Assembly (NCBI GenBank): GCA_964016885.1
Contig: OZ024752.1
Location: forward strand, 21,266,001-21,330,000
Direction: 5' to 3'
DNA: 64,000 nt
DNA from: Eledone cirrhosa
Taxonomy: Eukaryota
In this document: positions 6,000-35,944 of the stretch, one piece after another
Position numbering within the stretch: the first letter of the stretch is position 1
Layout of the letters: each line of letters opens with the position of its first letter
Made by a program: the position numbers and the translations under genes
The notes under the pieces: generated by a model
The model's input: only the letters and a program-made list of their open reading frames with translations
The model's database searches: none
What the model was told of the DNA's origin: nothing

Positions 6000-6490
6000 T
6001 ATCCGTAGTAGTAGAGCACTCAGTCTATGGGACAAGTTAGGTAGAAGTGGTAACACAAGTTAGTTCACCATACCGAGAACAATTGTTTCACCTTAGCCGA
6101 TCTTAGCTCGGACTGGTGTTGGTTATACGGGATAGGAAGAATAACTGCATGAACGCGCATGCGCAGAAATAGTCACTTCAGCCAAGCGATACAATGCCAC
6201 GGGCGAAAGGTGTAAGGGAGATAACTGCGAAAGTCCGAAAAGTAGTTTGAGTTGACAAGAAAATTAGTATGTTATTGTTATTCAATCCGGAGGTTTGTAG
6301 TTATGTAAGATGTGTTTCCAGACATGTGGACACAGTTCACAAGACGGGTATGGCTTGGATTTAGTGATGGCTTTCCATTGAATGGAGTAGTCTATACTTG
6401 AGTCCTTCAGGGACCATACGTGGCTCGCGAGTTTCATGGATGATCGTTTGTCCGGGTATCTAAAGTTCTAATAGTTCAGGTAGCTTGGAA
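6000..6490 (-). mobile_element. Penelope-like element 3' end with a degenerate hammerhead at 6073-6111
   Basis: Minus strand translates MKLASHVWSLKDSSIDYSIQWKAITKSKPYPSCELC (PLE GIY-YIG C-terminus); downstream ccgag-CTAAGA-...-GAAAC-aatt-GTT-ctcgg. Confidence 0.7.
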
Positions 6491-9401: not shown

Positions 9402-10210
9402 TCATCATCATCATCATCATCATCATTTTACGTCTGCTTTTCCCTGCTTGCAAGGGTGGGACGGGTCTTATTCAGCACAGCATCTCTCCACTCGTCACGG
9501 TCCCTCGTCATCTCCACCGTGAGCTTCAATGATCTGAGGTCTGTTCTCACCACCTCCGCCCATGTTTTTCGTGGTCTACCTCTATCACGTCTTCCTTCAA
9601 CTGGCATTTCCTGGCACTTCTTCACCCATCGGTCATCCTCCATGCGCATCACATGTCCATACCACCTCAGTCTCCTCTCCCGTACACTACATTCTATCCC
9701 TCTCAGACACAGTTTCTCTCTCAACACATTTATGCTGGGTCGTTCACGCACATTTACACTGCACATCCAACGGAGCATGCTTGCCTCATTTCTCTCCAGC
9801 CGTCGCATATCCTCTGCGGTTGCTGCCCATGTCTCACTACCATGCAGCATCGCGCTCCTCACACAGGCATCATACAACCGGCCTTTCGTACGCAGGGAGA
9901 AACCCTTCTTCGTCAACAGAGGAAGCAGCTCCCTAAACTTCTTCCAACCCGTCCTTATTCTAGATACTATGGCCTCGGAACACCCTCCTCCCATGTTAAT
10001 CTGATCTCCTAGGTACCGGAAGCTATCCACCACTTCTATAGCGCCCTCTCGCATTTGAAAAATGTGTCTATCAGTGCGACTTCTACTGTCTAATTTCCCT
10101 GTACATCTACTGCATACATATTTCTCCCTACCTGTTAGTTTGCCTGCTATCCTGCTACATCTCTTGTGTACCCAGGACCTGCATTGTGTGCATTTTATAG
10201 AATTTATGCT
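9402..10210 (-). mobile_element. RTE LINE 3' fragment
   Basis: ORF 9428..10258 with WVHKRC, FRYLG, RLRWYGHV and GRPRKTW; (cat)n tail. Confidence 0.92.
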
Positions 10211-10580
10211 ATATAGTAATATATAGTAATAATAATAAATTTGAAGACTAAAATCCAAAGAGGGATCGATAACGATAAATATATATCAAATATATAAGAA
10301 CCGTCGAGCAAATTTATACCATAAACGTGGTTTTGTCTTTGCGTGTAATTGTTTTCACCACTCCAAATAATGACGTATTATCCTCGTTTTTTCCGTTCTT
10401 TGACAGGGAACGTTTCCACGAACCAAAGTATCGTCTTTCTGTCTTCCTTCGGTTGCAACGTTTTTTGAAATATTTACTTCTGCGTTCACAGATTAACTTT
10501 TTTAGTTTCAGAAGATCCCGTTAAGGGTGAAAGCAGCGATAACTTTAATCTGTTATTTTAATAAATATATACATATATAT

Positions 10581-26058: not shown

Positions 26059-26226
26059 TATATATATATATATATATATACATCTATATATATATATATA
26101 TATATATATACATCTATATATATATATATATATATATATACATCTATATATATATATATATATACATCTATATATATATATATATATATATATACATCTA
26201 TATATATATATATATATATATATACA

Positions 26227-26264
<38 letters not shown>

Positions 26265-26272
26265 TATATACA

Positions 26273-26335
<63 letters not shown>

Positions 26336-26336
26336 C

Positions 26337-26382
<46 letters not shown>

Positions 26383-26408
26383 TATATATATATATATATA
26401 TATATACA

Positions 26409-26456
<48 letters not shown>

Positions 26457-26457
<1 letters not shown>

Positions 26458-28170
26458 ATTGAAACAAAATGAAAACGAAATTTCATTTCTCACTCTTAGT
26501 ATGGCACTTACTTAAATGTAAGTATGCGTGTCAGTGTTGAACAAAAAGGTGACGTGGTTGCCTTAACACCGTATGGCATAAACTCAGGCTGTTCAGTTTG
26601 TTTACAAACGAACAAAGCGACGTTAGCGCCGCTAAACTGATACGTGCATATATGTATGTGTACCTGTATGCATATGTATGTATATATGTATATATATATA
26701 TATATGTGCATGCTACTGTACGTCTGTATACATATATGTATGTACGTATACATGCATACTTACATTTAAGTAAGTGCCATACTAAGAGTGAGAAATGAAA
26801 TTTTGTTTTCATTTTGTTTCAATTTATCGTTTTCGGTATGCCTGACCGATTTAACTCACTCAATATGCAAATTAGGCTGCTCAGCCGTTAATTTTCATAA
26901 GGAAAGTATATACTTTCGAACGTTCAACTATCTGGCAGATGGGTAAACGGTGCTGATGATAGCTAACAAGCTTGAAACTAGTACATCGTTCCCGTGTCAG
27001 TGTTGAACAAAAAGGTGACGTGGTTGCCTTAACACCGTCTGGCATAAATTCAGGCTGTTCAGTTTGTTTACAAACGAACAAAGCGACGTTAGCGCCGCTA
27101 AACTGATACGTGCATATATGTATGTGTACCTGTATGCATATGTATGTATATATGTATATATATATATATATGTGCATGCTACTGTACGTCTGTATACATA
27201 TATGTATGTACGTATACATGCATACTTACATTTAAGTAAGTGCCATACTAAGAGTGAGAAATGAAATTTCGTTTTCATTTTGTTTCAATCTATCGTTTTC
27301 GGTATGCCTGACCGATTTAACTCACTCAATATGCAAATTAGGCTGCTCAGCCGTTAATTTTCATAAGGAAAGTATATACTTTCGAACGTTCAACTATCTG
27401 GCAGATGGGTAAACGGTGCTGATGATAGCTAACAAGCTTGAAACTAGTACATCGTTCCCGTGTCAGTGTTGAACAAAAAGGTGACGTGGTTGCCTTAACA
27501 CCGTCTGGCATAAATTCAGGCTGTTCAGTTTGTTTACAAACGAACAAAGCGACGTTAGCGCCGCTAAACTGATATGTGCATATATGTATGTGTACCTGTA
27601 TGCATATGTATGTATATATGTATATATATATATATATGTGCATGCTACTGTACGTCTGTATACATATATGTATGTACGTATACATGCATACTTACATTTA
27701 AGTAAGTGTCATACTAAGAGTGAGAAATGAAATTTCGTTTTCATTTTGTTTCAATTTATCGTTTTCGGTATGCCTGACCGATTTAACTCACTCAATATGC
27801 AAATTAGGCTGCTCAGCCGTTAATTTTCATAAGGGAAGTATATACTTTAGAACGTTCAACTATCTGGCAGATGGGTAAACGGTGCTGATGATAGCTAACA
27901 AGCTTGAAACTAGTACATCGTTCCCGTGTCAGTGTTGAACAAAAAGGTGACGTGGTTGCCTTAACACCATATGGCATAAATTCAGGCTGTTCAGTTTGTT
28001 TACAAACGAACAAAGGGACGTTATAATAAGCGCCGCTAAACTGATACGTGCATATATGTATGTGTACCTGTATACATATGTATGTATATATGTATATATA
28101 TATATATATGTGCATGCTACTGTACGTCTGTATACATATATGTATGTACGTATACATGCATACTTACATT
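26457..28170 (+). mobile_element. Retrozyme-like tandem array: ~3.5 copies of a 466-bp unit preceded by a 71-bp inverted piece
   Basis: Identical HHRs start at 26946, 27412 and 27878 (exact 466 spacing); 26457-26527 is the reverse complement of part of the unit. Confidence 0.88.
26946..26990 (+). ncRNA. Minimal type I hammerhead ribozyme (repeated at 27412-27456 and 27878-27922)
   Basis: aacggtg-CTGATGA-t.agct.aaca.agct.t-GAAAC-ta-GTA-catcgtt; palindromic stem III ACTAGT. Confidence 0.9.
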
Positions 28171-28642
28171 TATATATACATCTATATATATATATATATA
28201 CATATATATATGTATATATATATATGTACATATATATATATATATATATGTACATATATATATATATATATATGTACATATATATATATATATATGTACA
28301 TATATATATATATATATGTACATATATATATATATATATGTACATATATATATATATATGTACATATATATATATATATGTACATATATATATATATATG
28401 TACATATATATATATATATATATGTACATATATATATATATATATGTACATATATATATATATATATGTACATATATATATATATATGTACATATATATA
28501 TATATATATGTACATATATATATATATATATGTACATATATATATATATATATATGTACATATATATATATATATATATGTACATATATATATATATATG
28601 TATGTACATATATATATATATATGTACATATATATATATATA

Positions 28643-28680
<38 letters not shown>

Positions 28681-28703
28681 TATATATATATATATGTACA
28701 TAT

Positions 28704-28935
28704 ATATTGTTATATTTGGGGAGGGTCATATTTGCGTAATATTGCCAGAATTAATAACAGAACACACTCACTGTTTGGTTGGTTTTCGCTTCTCGCTGTC
28801 TTTTATATCTGCGGTCTAACTTACTCGCAGATATAAAAGACAGCGAGAAGCGAAAACCAACCAAACAGTGAGTGTGTTCTGTTATTAATTCTGGCAATAT
28901 TACGCAAATATGACCCTCCCCAAATATAACAATAT
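28704..28935. repeat. Inverted repeat, 110-bp identical arms, 12-nt spacer
   Basis: Arms 28704-28813 and 28826-28935; related to the PLE terminus at 32335-32386 and 33101-33131. Confidence 0.95.
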
Positions 28936-28990
28936 CTGTTTCGACACACGATTTCATATAAAAAACCTCGCAAAACTAATTCATCGCCGC

Positions 28991-29710: not shown

Positions 29711-29957
<247 letters not shown>

Positions 29958-30039
29958 AAAGTTCTATTTAAATTGTTGGGATACAACAAGTAAATATTTT
30001 TATAACTGATATAAAGCACTCGACAAGTATTTGGAGTAG

Positions 30040-30396
30040 ATATACGATATTAACAAATGGAAACTATATTTATAAAACCATATTTATTTCATTATACATA
30101 TTTCAAGGATACCAAGTTAAATTATGGTATGCCTTCATCAGACAAAATACAATATATATCAGTTTTACAAATAAGCATTGACTATATATCAGTTTTACAA
30201 ATAAGCATTGACTATCCTGATGTCCTCCAAAAGTAATGGTCGCATTTTGAAAGGGTACGTCAATGCTTATTTGTAAAACTGATATATATTGTATTTTGTC
30301 TGATGAAGGCATACCATAATTTAACTTGGTATCCTTGAAATATGTATAATGAAATAAATATGGTTTTATAAATATAGTTTCCATTTGTTAATATCG

Positions 30397-30401
<5 letters not shown>
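30040..30401. repeat. Inverted repeat, ~143-bp arms, 76-nt spacer; each arm carries a hammerhead (30085-30149 minus, 30292-30356 plus)
   Basis: tattttgt-CTGATGA-aggcatacca..tggtatcctt-GAAA-tatgta-TA-atgaaata; the spacer starts with a 30-bp duplication of the arm end. Confidence 0.88.
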
Positions 30402-30427
<26 letters not shown>

Positions 30428-30510
30428 ATAATAATAAAATTGAAGACTAAAATCCAGAGAGGGCTCGATAAAATCTGTTATTTTAATAAATATATATATA
30501 TATATATATA

Positions 30511-30562
30511 TAAGTATGTATGTATACGTACATACATATATGTATACAGACGTACAGTAGCA

Positions 30563-30610
<48 letters not shown>

Positions 30611-31046
30611 TACATACAGGTACACATACATATATGCACGCATCAGTTTGGCGGACGCTTATTATAACGCCGCTTTGTTCGTTTGTAAACAAACTGAACA
30701 GCCTGAATTTATGCCATACGGTGTTAGGGCAACCACGTCACCTTTTTGTTCAACACTGACACAGGAACGATGTACTAGTTTCAAGCTTGTTAGCTATCAT
30801 CAGCACCGTATACCCATCCGCCAGATAGTTGAACGTTCGAAAGTATATACTTTCCTTATGAAAATTAACGGCTGAGCAGACTAATTTGCATATTGAGTGA
30901 GTTAAATCGGTCAGGCATACCGTAAACGATAAGTTGAAAAAAAAATGAAAACGAAATTTAATTTCTCACTCTTAGTATGGCACTTACTTAAATGTAAGTA
31001 TGTATGTATACGTACATACATATATGTATACAGACGTACAGTAGCA

Positions 31047-31104
<58 letters not shown>

Positions 31105-31569
31105 TACATACAGGTACACATACATATATGCACGCATCAGTTTAGCGGACGCTTATTATAACGCCGCTTTGTTCGTTTGTAAACAAACTGAACAGCCTGA
31201 ATTTATGCCATACGGTGTTAAGGCAACCACGTCACCTTTTTTTCAACTTATCGTTTTCGGTATGCCTGACCGATTTAACTCACTCAATATGCAAATTAGT
31301 CTGCTCAGCCGTTAATTTTCATAAGGAAAGTATATACTTTCGAACGTTCAACTATCTGGCAGATGGGTATACGGTGCTGATGATAGCTAACAAGCTTGAA
31401 ACTAGTACATCGTTCCTGTGTCAGTGTTGAACAAAAAGGTGACGTGGTTGCCTTAACACCGTATGGCATAAATTCAGGCTGTTCAGTTTGTTTACAAACG
31501 AACAAAGCGGCGTTATAATAAGCGTCCGCTAAACTGATGCGTGCATATATGTATGTGTACCTGTATGTA

Positions 31570-31639
<70 letters not shown>

Positions 31640-32075
31640 TGCTACTGTACGTCTGTATACATATATGTATGTACGTATACATACATACTTACATTTAAGT
31701 AAGTGCCATACTAAGAGTGAGAAATGAAATTTCGTTTTCATTTTTTTTTCAACTTATCGTTTTCGGTATGCCTGACCGATTTAACTCACTCAATATGCAA
31801 ATTAGTCTGCTCAGCCGTTAATTTTCATAAGGAAAGTATATACTTTCGAACGTTCAACTATCTGGCAGATGGGTATACGGTGCTGATGATAGCTAACAAG
31901 CTTGAAACTAGTACATCGTTCCTGTGTCAGTGTTGAACAAAAAGGTGACGTGGTTGCCTTAACACCGTATGGCATAAATTCAGGCTGTTCAGTTTGTTTA
32001 CAAACGAACAAAGCGGCGTTATAATAAGCGTCCGCTAAACTGATGCGTGCATATATGTATGTGTACCTGTATGTA

Positions 32076-32117
<42 letters not shown>

Positions 32118-32230
32118 TGCTACTGTACGTCTGTATACATATATGTATGTACGTATACATACATACTTACATTTAAGTAAGTGCCATACTAAGAGTGAGA
32201 AATGAAATTTCGTTTTCATTTTTTTTTAAA

Positions 32231-32233
<3 letters not shown>
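30511..32233. mobile_element. Second array of the 466-bp HHR family: ~1.5 inverted units then ~2 direct units
   Basis: HHRs at 30766-30810 (minus), 31370-31414 and 31876-31920 (plus); strand switch near 31240. Confidence 0.88.
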
Positions 32234-32268
<35 letters not shown>

Positions 32269-32295
32269 TACATATATATTTATAATATATAATAT

Positions 32296-33126
32296 ATTTC
32301 GTTTCTGAATTTGTTTAGCAAGATTCTTTATCTGAAAACGTGTGTTGAAACTGATATTGTTATACTTTGGGAAGGTCATGTTGCCATAATCTGTAAACTA
32401 AGCCCCCATATTAACTGTAAAACTAGAAACATAGTATATAGCATAAGATGTACTGAAGGACAATGTAAAAAGAAGAATATAGTGTACATAGGTGAGACAG
32501 CTCGTAGTATAGGAGAACGATTAAATGAACACTGGCGAGAGCTTCAAGATAGAAAAGAATAATTAGTACTCCCCCAACATGCTAAAATAGAACATAAGGG
32601 CAAATTAGAGAACATGGAAATAAAAATAAAATCTACACACGAAAAGACGCAATGTTTAGACAAATCACAGAGGCAGTAAACATAAATGAACTCCAACCAA
32701 AATTAAATAGAAAACATGAATGGAATAGCAGCATCACAACTTACAATTAAGGACAAAATGAAAACACATACACATAGAACAAACAACCAACCAGTAACAT
32801 GTAAATAAACAAATAAATAAACAAATAAAAACACACACAGACACCCGGATGTAACATGCGCAAACTAAGCACACAACACACACAAAAACAAGATGGCGTA
32901 GGACAGAATTAAGGAGAGGCACAAAACAAAGAGAAGAATCCCCAGTCACTGAAGAGGTCACAGAATGTGTGACAAAAGAACTTTGACAATATAGGAACAA
33001 CCATTCGGTTGTGGAACCAACAAACCAACCGGAAATTTATAAATTTTTTAATTTATAATAAATTGGAGTGAAAGCAACTGGTCTGTGTGTTTCTTATTGG
33101 CAACATGACCCTCCCGAAGTATAACA

Positions 33127-33131
<5 letters not shown>
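32296..33131 (+). mobile_element. 5'-truncated Penelope-like element (GIY-YIG end + UTR) with an inverted terminal copy at its 5' side
   Basis: NCKTRNIVYSIRC...VYIGETARSIGERLNEH; atattgttatactttgggaaggtcatgttgcca at 32354 is inverted at 33101-33131; decayed HHR gtca-CTGAAGA-g.gtcac..gtgac-AAAA at 32945-32987. Confidence 0.85.
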
Positions 33132-33184
<53 letters not shown>

Positions 33185-33227: not shown

Positions 33228-34645
33228 ATCATCATCATCATCATCACCGTTTTACGTCCGTTCTTCCATGCTAGCATGGATTAGACGGGTTGTCCTGTTG
33301 TGGGCAGTGTCTGGTCGGCTGACTATGCCTTGCTCATACAGGAACTGATTTTGGCTTGATTTTTACAGCTGGATGCCCTTCCTAACACCAACCTCATTTA
33401 CAGTGAGTGCTGGGTGCTTTTTCCGTGGCGCCTACACGTCCACTTTACATTGTGGGCTGGGTGCTTTTTTGCCGTGGCACCTCCACGACCACCTTGCAGT
33501 GGGAGGGTGTGGGAGCATATTGTCTATATGCTTCACCTTGTACCCATGGGAGGTCGGGTACTCTGTATTACTGCGTGACGCCAGAGGTCACGGTCGTGTG
33601 TCATCGCCTTTTAGAGGTGTAATTGGGTAAGGTCAGCTTTTATCACCTCATCGCAGGTCTTCTTGGGTCTCCCCACTCCGCGGTTTCCATTGACTTCTAG
33701 TGCTCTGCACCTCTTTATACAGCTGTCATCCTTCATACGCATCACATGTCCATACTAACGCAACCGCCTCTCCTGCACACAACATTTGATTCCTTTTATG
33801 CTCAGTCTCTCTCTCAATTCATTTATGCTTTGTCGTTCGCGTATATTACTATTACACATCCATCAGAGCATGCAGGCTTCGTTTCTTTCTAATCTATGTA
33901 AGTCTTCCACCTTCAGCGCCCAGGTCTCACTACCATGTAACATTGCTGTTCGTATTCTCGCATCATACAGTCTGCCTTTCATTTTGAGGGAGAAGCCTTT
34001 TGCAGCTAGCAGTGGCAGTAGTTGCCTGAACTTCTTCCATCCTGTTCTTACCCTAGTTATTGTACTTTCAGAACACCCACCTCTGCTGCTAATTCGGCCA
34101 CCTAGGTAGCAGAAGCTGTCTACTGTTTCTACAGAGCCCTCCAAGAGATTGGTGGTACTTGTTTCCTGTGGCTGGTTGCTGCTTGCTGTCCCAGCACAGC
34201 TGCTGCATGTGAAGCCTACATTCTTAATTAAGCTTCCTGAGATCCCGCTATATCTCTTGTGTACCCATTGTTTGCATTTGGGGCAGAGAATGGAGTTCCT
34301 ACCTACACCTTTCCTACATACCGAGCAAGGCCATTTCCCAAAGGGGATCTGGGTTCTGTTTTCTCGTCTACTTACAAGGCCCTTAGTCTTTGTCAGGTTG
34401 ACTTTGAGACCCTTTCTTTCCAGTCCCTGCTTCCAAGTTTGGAATTTCTTCTCTAGTTCTACCATAGATTCAGCTATAAGTGCGAGGTCATCAGCATAGA
34501 GGAGTTCCCATGGCCCTCCGGTCTTAAACTCCTCCGTTATTGCCTGCAGGACTATGATGAACAGGAGAGGGCTAACAACAGGCCCTGGTGGACACCAACC
34601 TGTACACTAAATTCCTCGCTATACTCATTGCTAATCCTAACTGGC
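33228..34645 (-). mobile_element. 5'-truncated RTE LINE
   Basis: ORF 33863..34465 with the PHD-like finger and MLHGSETW; (cat)n tail. Confidence 0.9.
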
Positions 34646-34684
34646 TTACTATAACATTCGTTTTATGAGGGGAGGGGGGGGGTT

Positions 34685-35944
34685 CTAGAGTTAGTCATAC
34701 CTATAGTCGGATATAATAGAATAGATAACCGCACTAAAGATAACGACCCCGGCGACGGTGACCACTGTAGATTACTCGAACTATTCCCCTATTACAAAAC
34801 CAACAAAGGCGACGGCCTACTACCAACGCCTTCCAACCAACATCTTCCTGTACATAAACATGGAAGAGGTAGGAAGAGTGCACCCGAGCATAAAGTGAAA
34901 GTGGCACCGAACGGGCGACTGCGCATTAACACACATAAGAGCGGTCACCTAGATGGAAACACCCGTAGCAAACGTACAAGGACACGTAATCGCCACCATA
35001 ACGTCCTATGGTTCCATCACCCCCTACTCTCGGAGTGTGGCCTCCAACATACCCCGAACGTTCTTCGAAGCCTTAGAGAAGAACTTCCCGCCCAACCATA
35101 GGTATAGAAAAATTCTTAATAGGAACAATATAAAAATATCCTTCTCTACTACTCCTAACCTAACAGACATCATAGGAACAACGAACCACAGTAAGATCAC
35201 CAAGACACAGCACCTCGACACAGACGCACCTACACCTGACAATAACTATATCGACCTTAACAACTCCCTGGCAGCATCCAATAGTGTTGGCAACGGCATC
35301 CGCAGACGCAACTAGCATAACCGCGAAATGACTGGGGAACATGCAGGACATGACGTGCGGAATAACAATCGCACCACCCCGCGTGCTGTGGGTTGTAATG
35401 GTGCTAACGACAGCTGCGGTAGCGTAGGTAACAATGTAGGCAGCAACAATGATAGCCTTACCGTGGGAAATAGACGGAACCGCGACAGAAATTGCAACTG
35501 CCGCGACAGAGGACGCTGCCCCCTTAGAGGATACTGCTTGACTGATAGGGTTATATATAGATGCACTATAACTAGCCACAATAGCGTTAAACATTATATA
35601 GGGGCTACCTCCGGCCCGTTCAACATTAGGTTTCGAACACATCTCCACTCTTTCACAAATAGAAAACTAAGGCACTCCACTTCGCTCGCGGACTACATCA
35701 CATCACTAAAGAACTTAAACATCAGCTTCTCCACGCACTGGGATATTGTCGACAGGGCTGCACCGTTCAACTTCAAGAGGAAATGCGATCTTTGCCTCAT
35801 GGAGCTCTACCACATCATAACTGCACCCCACGAGCACATCAACAGCAGAGCTGAAACAGCGATAAGTTGTACACATCGCTTAAAAATATCACTGATGAAG
35901 GACTAACTTTATTCATATGTAACCCATTAGCAACCACGCAGCAC

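Follow-up and report, generated by a model that had tools for sequence, protein, structure and literature searches.

The window analysed here is a stretch of 64,000 nucleotides from the genome of Eledone cirrhosa (GenBank assembly GCA_964016885.1, contig OZ024752.1, positions 21,266,001 to 21,330,000 of the forward strand). Between positions 26457 and 28172, it carries an insert made up of direct and inverted copies of a single unit, set between two (TA)n microsatellites (Table 1). TRF gives a period of 466, with 3.5 copies and 98% matches, over 26527-28172. Units are numbered from the first base after the GUA triplet of a hammerhead ribozyme motif, which is taken as +1. The direct arm crosses three predicted cut sites and stops, at its outer end, at a position hereafter called site A (the short end), beyond which TA repeats begin. 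The inverted arm has one base in common with the direct arm (26527). As the first-pass annotation had noted, this 71-bp inverted piece overlaps and extends the point where the array ends, since unit positions +307..+237 cover +247..+251, where the direct arm stops; it is a second, short cDNA arm that ends at another position, site B. The layout is therefore one of tandem units with an inverted arm, and not an LTR layout. An 11-bp sequence is repeated at the two edges of the insert. The motif that interrupts it is found 14 times on the left of the insert but just once on the right, directly at the junction, which makes the 11-bp repeat a fair candidate for a target-site duplication.

Table 1. 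Features of the insert, its flanks and the sister insertion (window coordinates; unit positions carry a plus sign).
Feature	Position	Strand	Remarks
Left flanking (TA)n microsatellite, the target	25982..26456	.	left of the insert
Candidate target-site duplication, left copy, 11 bp	26446..26456	+	last unit of left microsatellite
Inverted arm, 71 nt, unit +237..+307	26457..26527	-	outer end is the long ('tail') end, site B
Direct arm, 3.5 units of 466 nt	26527..28172	+	inner, truncated end at unit +10; outer end at +247..+251 (site A)
Type I hammerhead 1, extended stem I	26932..27000	+	core 26953-26959, predicted cut after 26983
Cut-to-cut monomer, 466 nt, predicted releasable/circular RNA	26984..27449	+	release inferred
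TA/TG microsatellite within the unit (about +122..+236), an imperfect palindrome	27105..27219	+	predicted long hairpin
Two-hairpin segment with sites A (+247..+251) and B (+305..+310)	27220..27293	+	one per unit
Type I hammerhead 2, identical	27398..27466	+	predicted cut after 27449
Second cut-to-cut monomer	27450-27915	+	predicted
Type I hammerhead 3, identical	27864..27932	+	predicted cut after 27915
Candidate target-site duplication, right copy	28172..28182	+	at insert/TA junction
Right flanking (TA)n microsatellite	28172..28706	.	right of the insert
Sister insertion, same family	30505..32232	.	about 89-90% identical, 506-nt unit, head-to-head
Sister minus arm, +19 to site A	30505-31247	-	hammerhead at 30803
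Sister plus arm, +296 to site B	31237-32232	+	hammerheads at 31377, 31883

The full units differ from each other at 4, 7 and 5 positions and the fourth, partial unit bears a 6-nt insertion. Each unit has one TA/TG palindromic microsatellite, and the two-hairpin segment next to it (27220..27293 in the unit of Table 1) would be the region where reverse transcription starts. No sense-strand frame of 120 codons was found in the unit outside read-through of the microsatellite, and no frame for a reverse transcriptase with a GIY-YIG endonuclease lies within the insert.

CUGAUGA cores are found at 26953, 27419 and 27885, and GAAACUAGUA ends at 26983, 27449 and 27915. Sequence comparison bears out the earlier observation of three identical hammerheads at exact 466-bp spacing, each with an ACUAGU stem III; indeed, the 86-nt ribozyme regions are all identical. 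Each of them is built, in order, of CUGAUGA, stem II (3 bp on top of a U-U), GAAA, the ACUAGU palindrome and the GUA cut triplet. The base of stem II is a U-U, the usual G10.1-C11.1 pair is absent and the first pair is A-U; this base counts against the model favored below. The same earlier reading had called the motif a minimal hammerhead; the palindromic 15.2-16.2 feature agrees with this name, but the 2-bp helix III places the motif closer to the type I form with a 'short palindromic helix III' (PMC4209133). Stem III is self-complementary and, within one molecule, would consist of 2 bp and a 2-nt loop, so that cleavage is expected to occur as a dimer; the duplex of two ACUAGU copies has a computed energy of -6.8 kcal/mol. 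Dimer cleavage is the mode expected for hammerheads having a short helix III (PMC4209133). Related hammerhead motifs cut poorly alone, and eight out of nine frog retrozyme dimers are described as uncleaved in vitro. Self-cleavage of the transcript as a dimer is thus a prediction, in which activity is not assured.

A comparison of 200 locus-distinct copies shows 97-100% conservation at the catalytic positions, variation being found at N7, in loop II and in stem I. In the same copies, pair 3 of stem I is G-U in 104 cases, U-G in 79 and A-U in 10 (98% paired). This pattern supports a ribozyme under constraint, with compensatory changes in stem I, a claim that concerns pair 3 and does not extend to the distal pairs of the stem. 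Between two subfamilies of the element (see below), core identity is 30/31 vs. 205/276 elsewhere, a contrast that is partly circular because most copies were selected by that core. Folding of the monomer ribozyme gives z=-1.74, which is not significant, and the value for the whole circle (z=-7.4) is driven by the palindromic microsatellite. No Rfam match to the array reaches the gathering score. The hammerhead family is absent among the 150 listed of the 170 weak Rfam matches; every listed match is to a TA-hairpin miRNA model and scores well short of its cut-off.

All sequence-level features that were tested agree with a metazoan non-LTR retrozyme, i.e. a non-autonomous Penelope-like element, and this is what the element likely is. 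Exact matches to its 37-nt core number 10,333 in the 3.0-Gb genome, against 0 for the reversed control; hence, the motif is not due to chance. A looser core pattern has 25,465 genome matches, again with 0 for the reversed control, and a metagenome scan for the core returned 0 matches. The comparisons that follow use 136 locus records. Two sets are unbiased, one of 50 records covering the first 100 exact matches (contig 1) and one of 46 records for those of the first 100 looser-pattern matches that the exact set had not already covered; the remaining 11 and 29 records were drawn from best-hit searches. An older subfamily has a unit of about 424 nt and is about 74% identical outside the ribozyme and the microsatellite. 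The sister insertion at 30505..32232 is an independent event. An inverted arm beside direct copies is present at the locus studied here, in the sister and in 45 of the 96 loci of the two unbiased sets.

The outer ends of the arms are fixed at unit +247..+251 (site A) or +305..+310 (site B), after which TA follows, and the classed outer ends border (TA)n in the records examined. From the 136 records, 253 arms were obtained, 87 of them ending at A and 109 at B, with 55 unclassed and 2 at a record edge. The 69 head-to-head pairs comprise 43 A+B pairs, no A+A and no B+B pair, 24 pairs with an unclassed end and 2 with an end at the record edge. After removal of one local duplicate, the occurrence of A+B in 43/43 classifiable pairs has a probability of about 1e-13 under independence. 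The present locus obeys this rule, its long arm ending at A and its short arm at B. The older subfamily, in spite of its lower identity, ends at the homologous A and B sites, and the segment between A and B contains two predicted hairpins in both subfamilies. The combination of one A and one B end is the 'tail at one end' footprint of Penelope elements.

The inner ends bear on another claim of the first-pass annotation, according to which the start of the array would reflect a cleaved RNA end. The coordinate is right, since the direct arm begins at 26527, i.e. at unit +10, 9 nt past the predicted cut. The offset was rejected as a mark of cleavage. A sample of 120 inner ends, chosen by intact core, was taken from 60 head-to-head junctions, 9 of the 69 pairs being dropped because of long overlaps in the palindromic microsatellite. 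Eight of these ends lie within -10..+12 of the cut, vs. 5.7 expected (p=0.21), and five lie no more than 5 nt from it (at -2..+5), vs. 2.6 expected (p=0.12); over three windows, the excess at the cut site has p=0.12 to 0.23. Inner ends near the cut amount to 3/88 in the two unbiased sets and to 4/18 in one selected set. The ends are spread round the unit in a slightly non-uniform manner (KS p=0.046), with fewer in the microsatellite and more near +265..+310. The bin just upstream of site B holds 16 of the 120, about twice the average, and at this locus the short arm ends 10-14 nt beyond site A. In contigs of a sequencing run (X1, of unrecorded type), seven joints connect the inverted arm to further places scattered over the unit. 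Since the inner ends are scattered and show no significant excess, the +10 start is best read as an ordinary truncation point and looks like chance. There may be a small excess of inner ends at +1, and the cluster near +265..+310, like the end of the short arm here, may mark places where copying halts at the hairpins or against the second subunit of the enzyme. Across copies, array ends are thus unrelated to the cleavage site. This result goes against the offset only, since two other sites in the unit determine where the arrays end.

Information on the template comes from rare alleles. Those common to all overlapping units of an insertion number 39 in 58 insertions, 23 of them across both arms, and a second set yields 24 in 50 insertions, 13 across both arms. 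The shuffled control gives about 2 (maximum 10, 200 shuffles), to be read with the facts that two loci supply 7 and 10 of the fixed shared alleles and that the shuffle ignores relatedness within sub-lineages. Two loci account for most of the partly shared alleles (10/15 and 13/19). In one insertion (L037), six differences from the window's unit are common to both arms. Rare alleles shared by units and arms mean that one unit was usually copied repeatedly and in both directions. They fit rolling copying of one circle, a uniform linear multimer being expected to look alike. Unit junctions at the cut site are seamless.

The array in the window, as assembled, is a mosaic. The 6-nt insertion occurs only in unit 4 and 56C only in units 2 and 3; among 43 scorable multi-unit insertions, only this one mixes units with and without the 6-nt insertion, and the allele combination of unit 4 is absent from the six closest other loci examined. 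Because its units are mosaic, the array does not fit a single circle without later conversion or template switch. Elsewhere in the family, an array of 27 units (C3:180042500-180056200; records L033, L092, and L034) forms a 10-unit higher-order repeat in which the stem III palindrome is broken in 14 units, the change being present in both arms. Such a higher-order repeat, with broken stem III in both arms, points to uncut multimer templates or to growth at the DNA level. Taken over the family, the sequences support a monomer or circle as the probable template, to which this array is a poor witness. The array had been read earlier as a multimeric cDNA of a ~466-nt, possibly circular RNA; what stands is a retrozyme-type retrotransposed multimer, the circle being predicted. 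That the insert is a retrotransposed multimer rather than a plain satellite follows from the thousands of dispersed copies, the fixed ends in (TA)n, the candidate duplication and the compensatory changes in stem I.

Insertions of Penelope elements are described as incomplete tandem arrays that carry an inverted, 5'-truncated copy and, often, a tail at one end only, and (TA)n is a frequent target (PMC8557442). The same insertion structure was described for rotifer Penelope elements (PMC3846280). In experiments with a purified Penelope protein, AT-rich DNA was cut and extended on both strands, and copying began at two positions inside the RNA, by which the tail is defined; the protein was modelled as a dimer (PMC11167929). 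In the account of the anole element, ribozyme cleavage is dispensable for insertion in vitro, no reads end at the cut site and the main substrate is unprocessed RNA (PMC11167929). Retrozymes have been proposed to be moved by Penelope elements (PMC7229834; bioRxiv 10.64898/2026.07.22.740005). For the family studied here, Penelope-type mobilisation, considered by itself, is very probable.

Coding Penelope families co-occur with the retrozyme in the window and in the genome. Weak evidence designates one of them, young and by its motifs probably of the Hydra clade, as the best candidate for a helper, and no more. One copy (L115, 1963-4390) has an open frame of 809 codons with RLRW, DKT, and CxCx5C motifs, an asparagine-rich linker and a 3' region of ~1 kb ahead of its hammerhead. 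There is one cysteine only inside the GIY-YIG core, as in the Hydra clade (PMC8557442). Pfam, at curated cut-offs, gave no match for two fragments of this Hydra-like family. The family is abundant, with 2795 first-look candidates in the genome, and one short and one tailed end were read by eye in 9/9 two-armed copies from 16 loci, one automatic flag being overruled in this way. Among 62 unpaired arms, direct fusions of retrozyme and Hydra-like sequences occur at two loci (L056, 3208-4640, and L161, 5400-7870), one in the same orientation and one head-to-head; the L056 insert has the tailed end of the coding family on one side and the A end of the retrozyme on the other. Retrozyme sequence is present in 3 of the 42 locus records of the Hydra-like family, whose hammerhead and repeat are unlike those of the retrozyme. 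In the flanks of a few hundred of the ~25,000 cores, no pLTR or coding element sharing the retrozyme unit was found. A coding parent suggested by widely spaced core pairs (L161, L162) was rejected, these being separate or duplicated insertions.

The window contains a number of other repeats. An uninterrupted LINE frame of 1068 codons (22375-25581, + strand) carries an APE endonuclease, a reverse transcriptase and a PHD finger, and has shorter relatives at 15349-16614, 33863-34606, and 9428-10285. It is the long frame nearest to the insert and was rejected as a helper, being a LINE with these domains located 870 bp away, beyond other repeats. A fold-back with arms of about 110 nt between TA tracts (28707-28980), in which no hammerhead was seen, probably represents the two ends of another Penelope-type family. 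A second fold-back insertion between TA runs (29955-30400) has a different type I hammerhead on each strand (at 30300 on + and 30141 on -), and its relatives were found in many of the loci examined. Two decayed Penelope endonuclease regions lie on the + strand, one with two cysteines inside GIY-YIG (32295-33150) and one Hydra-like, which shares 36% identity with the candidate helper across 78 residues (34655-35935); a damaged or cut-off hammerhead follows each of them. On the - strand, a PIF1 helicase fragment of 450 codons (11950-13302) is probably derived from a Helitron. Among the locus records, L046 includes another tandem hammerhead repeat, unrelated to the present one, which starts at 6047 and has a period of 310 bp, 8 copies and the stem III palindrome ACGCGU.

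On balance, we favor a model in which the locus is a head-to-head insert in (TA)n, produced by Penelope-type copying of the predicted 466-nt circle onto both cut strands. Tandem copies would be transcribed. Two hammerheads would then pair via their palindromic stem III and cut at GUA, and the monomer would be ligated into a circle, as may be deduced from PMC7229834 and PMC4209133. A Penelope-type protein, presumably supplied in trans, would nick both (TA)n strands about 11 nt apart, and cDNA would begin at site A on one strand and at site B on the other, leaving the footprint that is observed at the outer ends. Copying would go round the template over differing distances, which at this locus amount to 3.5 turns from A and 71 nt from B. 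Finally, the truncated cDNA ends would join with little or no overlap, giving the structure actually seen, with fixed outer and scattered inner ends. A more specific version would have a dimeric Hydra-clade enzyme act on one self-cut circle, with one start site per strand, and roll both ways into a (TA)n double-strand cut; this version is put forward tentatively, as possible rather than probable.

The same two-end insertion could also use an uncut linear read-through transcript as the template, the hammerhead serving as a late or protein-assisted switch and no circle being formed. This would accommodate the mosaic units of the present array as well as the 10-unit higher-order repeat, both arms of which include units with a broken stem III, and it recalls the anole element, which used mainly unprocessed RNA (PMC11167929). 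However, many rare haplotypes are each uniform within an insertion, inverted arms included, which would require many uniform source arrays, and partly shared alleles are concentrated in the two loci mentioned above. In addition, 5' truncation only shortens arrays, so that some step must rebuild multimers from one unit. We therefore regard such a template as rather unlikely, while keeping it as a real contender. Mosaic units would also be explained by a pool of cut linear monomers, with the reverse transcriptase running off the cut 5' end and jumping, in which case arrays would tend to stop at the cut. This is the reading nearest to the claim on the 9-nt offset, and the few inner ends at -2..+5 (5/120 vs. 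2.6 expected; 4/18 in one selected set) go in its direction. It is made very improbable by the lack of significance of that excess (p=0.12 to 0.23), by the uniformity of most insertions, the 6-nt indel being mixed in 1/43 only, and by the seamless unit junctions at the cut site.

Two further explanations concern the way in which the arms arose. An antisense template that folds back and primes its own copying, as was suggested for palindrome-containing junctions of rotifer Penelope elements (PMC3846280), would create the inverted arm with no second target-primed event. The inner coordinate is indeed the same for both arms in 4/60 junctions, but the two coordinates are 12 to 229 nt apart in the other 56/60, and fold-back alone leaves the constant A and B outer ends unexplained; we consider it very unlikely. 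Lastly, the array could be a plain satellite grown in place by slippage or unequal crossing-over, in which the hammerhead would be a passive relic. DNA-level growth is likely for some long arrays, such as the one with the 10-unit higher-order repeat, and the units here are ~1% different. Yet the family is scattered through the genome as thousands of short insertions whose outer ends are fixed and whose inverted arms have rare alleles in common; together with the candidate duplication of the target and the compensatory changes in the stem, this leaves the explanation hardly any credit. Penelope-type copying of a circle onto both strands thus remains the preferred reading.

As its class is known, the locus alone is ordinary, and the interest of the family is as a test case. 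It adds a footprint-level link to Penelope chemistry, a rule of one site per arm and allele evidence on the template, and it offers thousands of young copies, a substrate of 466 nt and a candidate helper whose frame is intact. With the strict end rule, the allele evidence, the 466-nt substrate and the helper frame, questions on the enzyme that moves animal retrozymes, on a circle as its template and on the origin of the tandem and inverted structures of Penelope can be tested in the published anole in vitro system. If the dimeric-enzyme reading is true, a single mechanism would account for the arrangement in tandem, the inverted arm and the presence of a tail at only one end of Penelope elements, and the helper of a retrozyme would be named from its footprint.

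As far as its sequence allows it to be placed, the family is a previously unreported member of a class that is already known; a literature search, supplements left aside, returned no report of this family or of a one-site-per-arm rule in retrozymes. Two other hammerhead-bearing forms were considered and rejected. In the plant LTR retrozyme, a type III hammerhead is found in two LTRs with a 4-bp duplication, whereas type I hammerheads in tandem units are found here. The strictly minimal PLE hammerhead, as given in PMC4209133, has an extra nucleotide between 9 and 10.1, a G10.1-C11.1 pair, a long helix II and no helix III, whereas helix II here has 3 bp above the U-U with A-U as its first pair and helix III has 2 bp.

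Endonuclease-bearing Penelope-like elements, in the descriptions cited (PMC8557442; PMC3846280), share with the present family the tandem units, the hammerhead in the repeat and insertion in (TA)n, as well as a 5'-truncated copy that lies inverted at the 5' end and a one-ended tail. Unlike coding Penelope-like elements, the family has no reading frame, and its tail is about 58 nt vs. 30-40 for theirs (PMC8557442; PMC3846280). Craig et al. attributed the tail to endonuclease resolution of an intermediate (PMC8557442). As with PAc, the green anole Poseidon (PMC11167929), two internal sites downstream of the hammerhead, here putative start sites, define the tail, targets are AT-rich and both DNA strands would be cut and extended. 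PAc is autonomous, however, and an AC-rich stem-loop, 111-118 nt inside its reading frame, contains its start sites; moreover, its start site in vitro is reported to be equal on both strands (PMC11167929), whereas one site per strand is used in each insertion here. The family also resembles Chlamys MRC1, a non-coding Penelope derivative with multicopy head-to-tail insertions (PMC8557442). MRC1-type Chlamys elements share 3' sequence with autonomous families, and their clade was reported to be without canonical hammerheads (PMC8557442).

The closest relationships are with metazoan retrozymes (PMC7229834; bioRxiv 10.64898/2026.07.22.740005), which are likewise described as non-coding tandem repeats of low GC content with one type I hammerhead per unit and a short palindromic helix III, present in thousands of copies in genomes that have Penelope elements. 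The U-U at the base of helix II is common with the axolotl HHR_Amex2 of the same sources. For metazoan retrozymes, circles and cleavage were demonstrated (PMC7229834; bioRxiv 10.64898/2026.07.22.740005), whereas both are predictions for the present family. Conversely, head-to-head arms, two fixed ends and (TA)n targeting, all present here, do not appear in the portions of these retrozyme descriptions that were consulted (PMC7229834; bioRxiv 10.64898/2026.07.22.740005). Finally, the link between retrozymes and Penelope pLTRs is drawn from sequence in bioRxiv 10.64898/2026.07.22.740005, whereas here it is drawn from the footprint of insertion.
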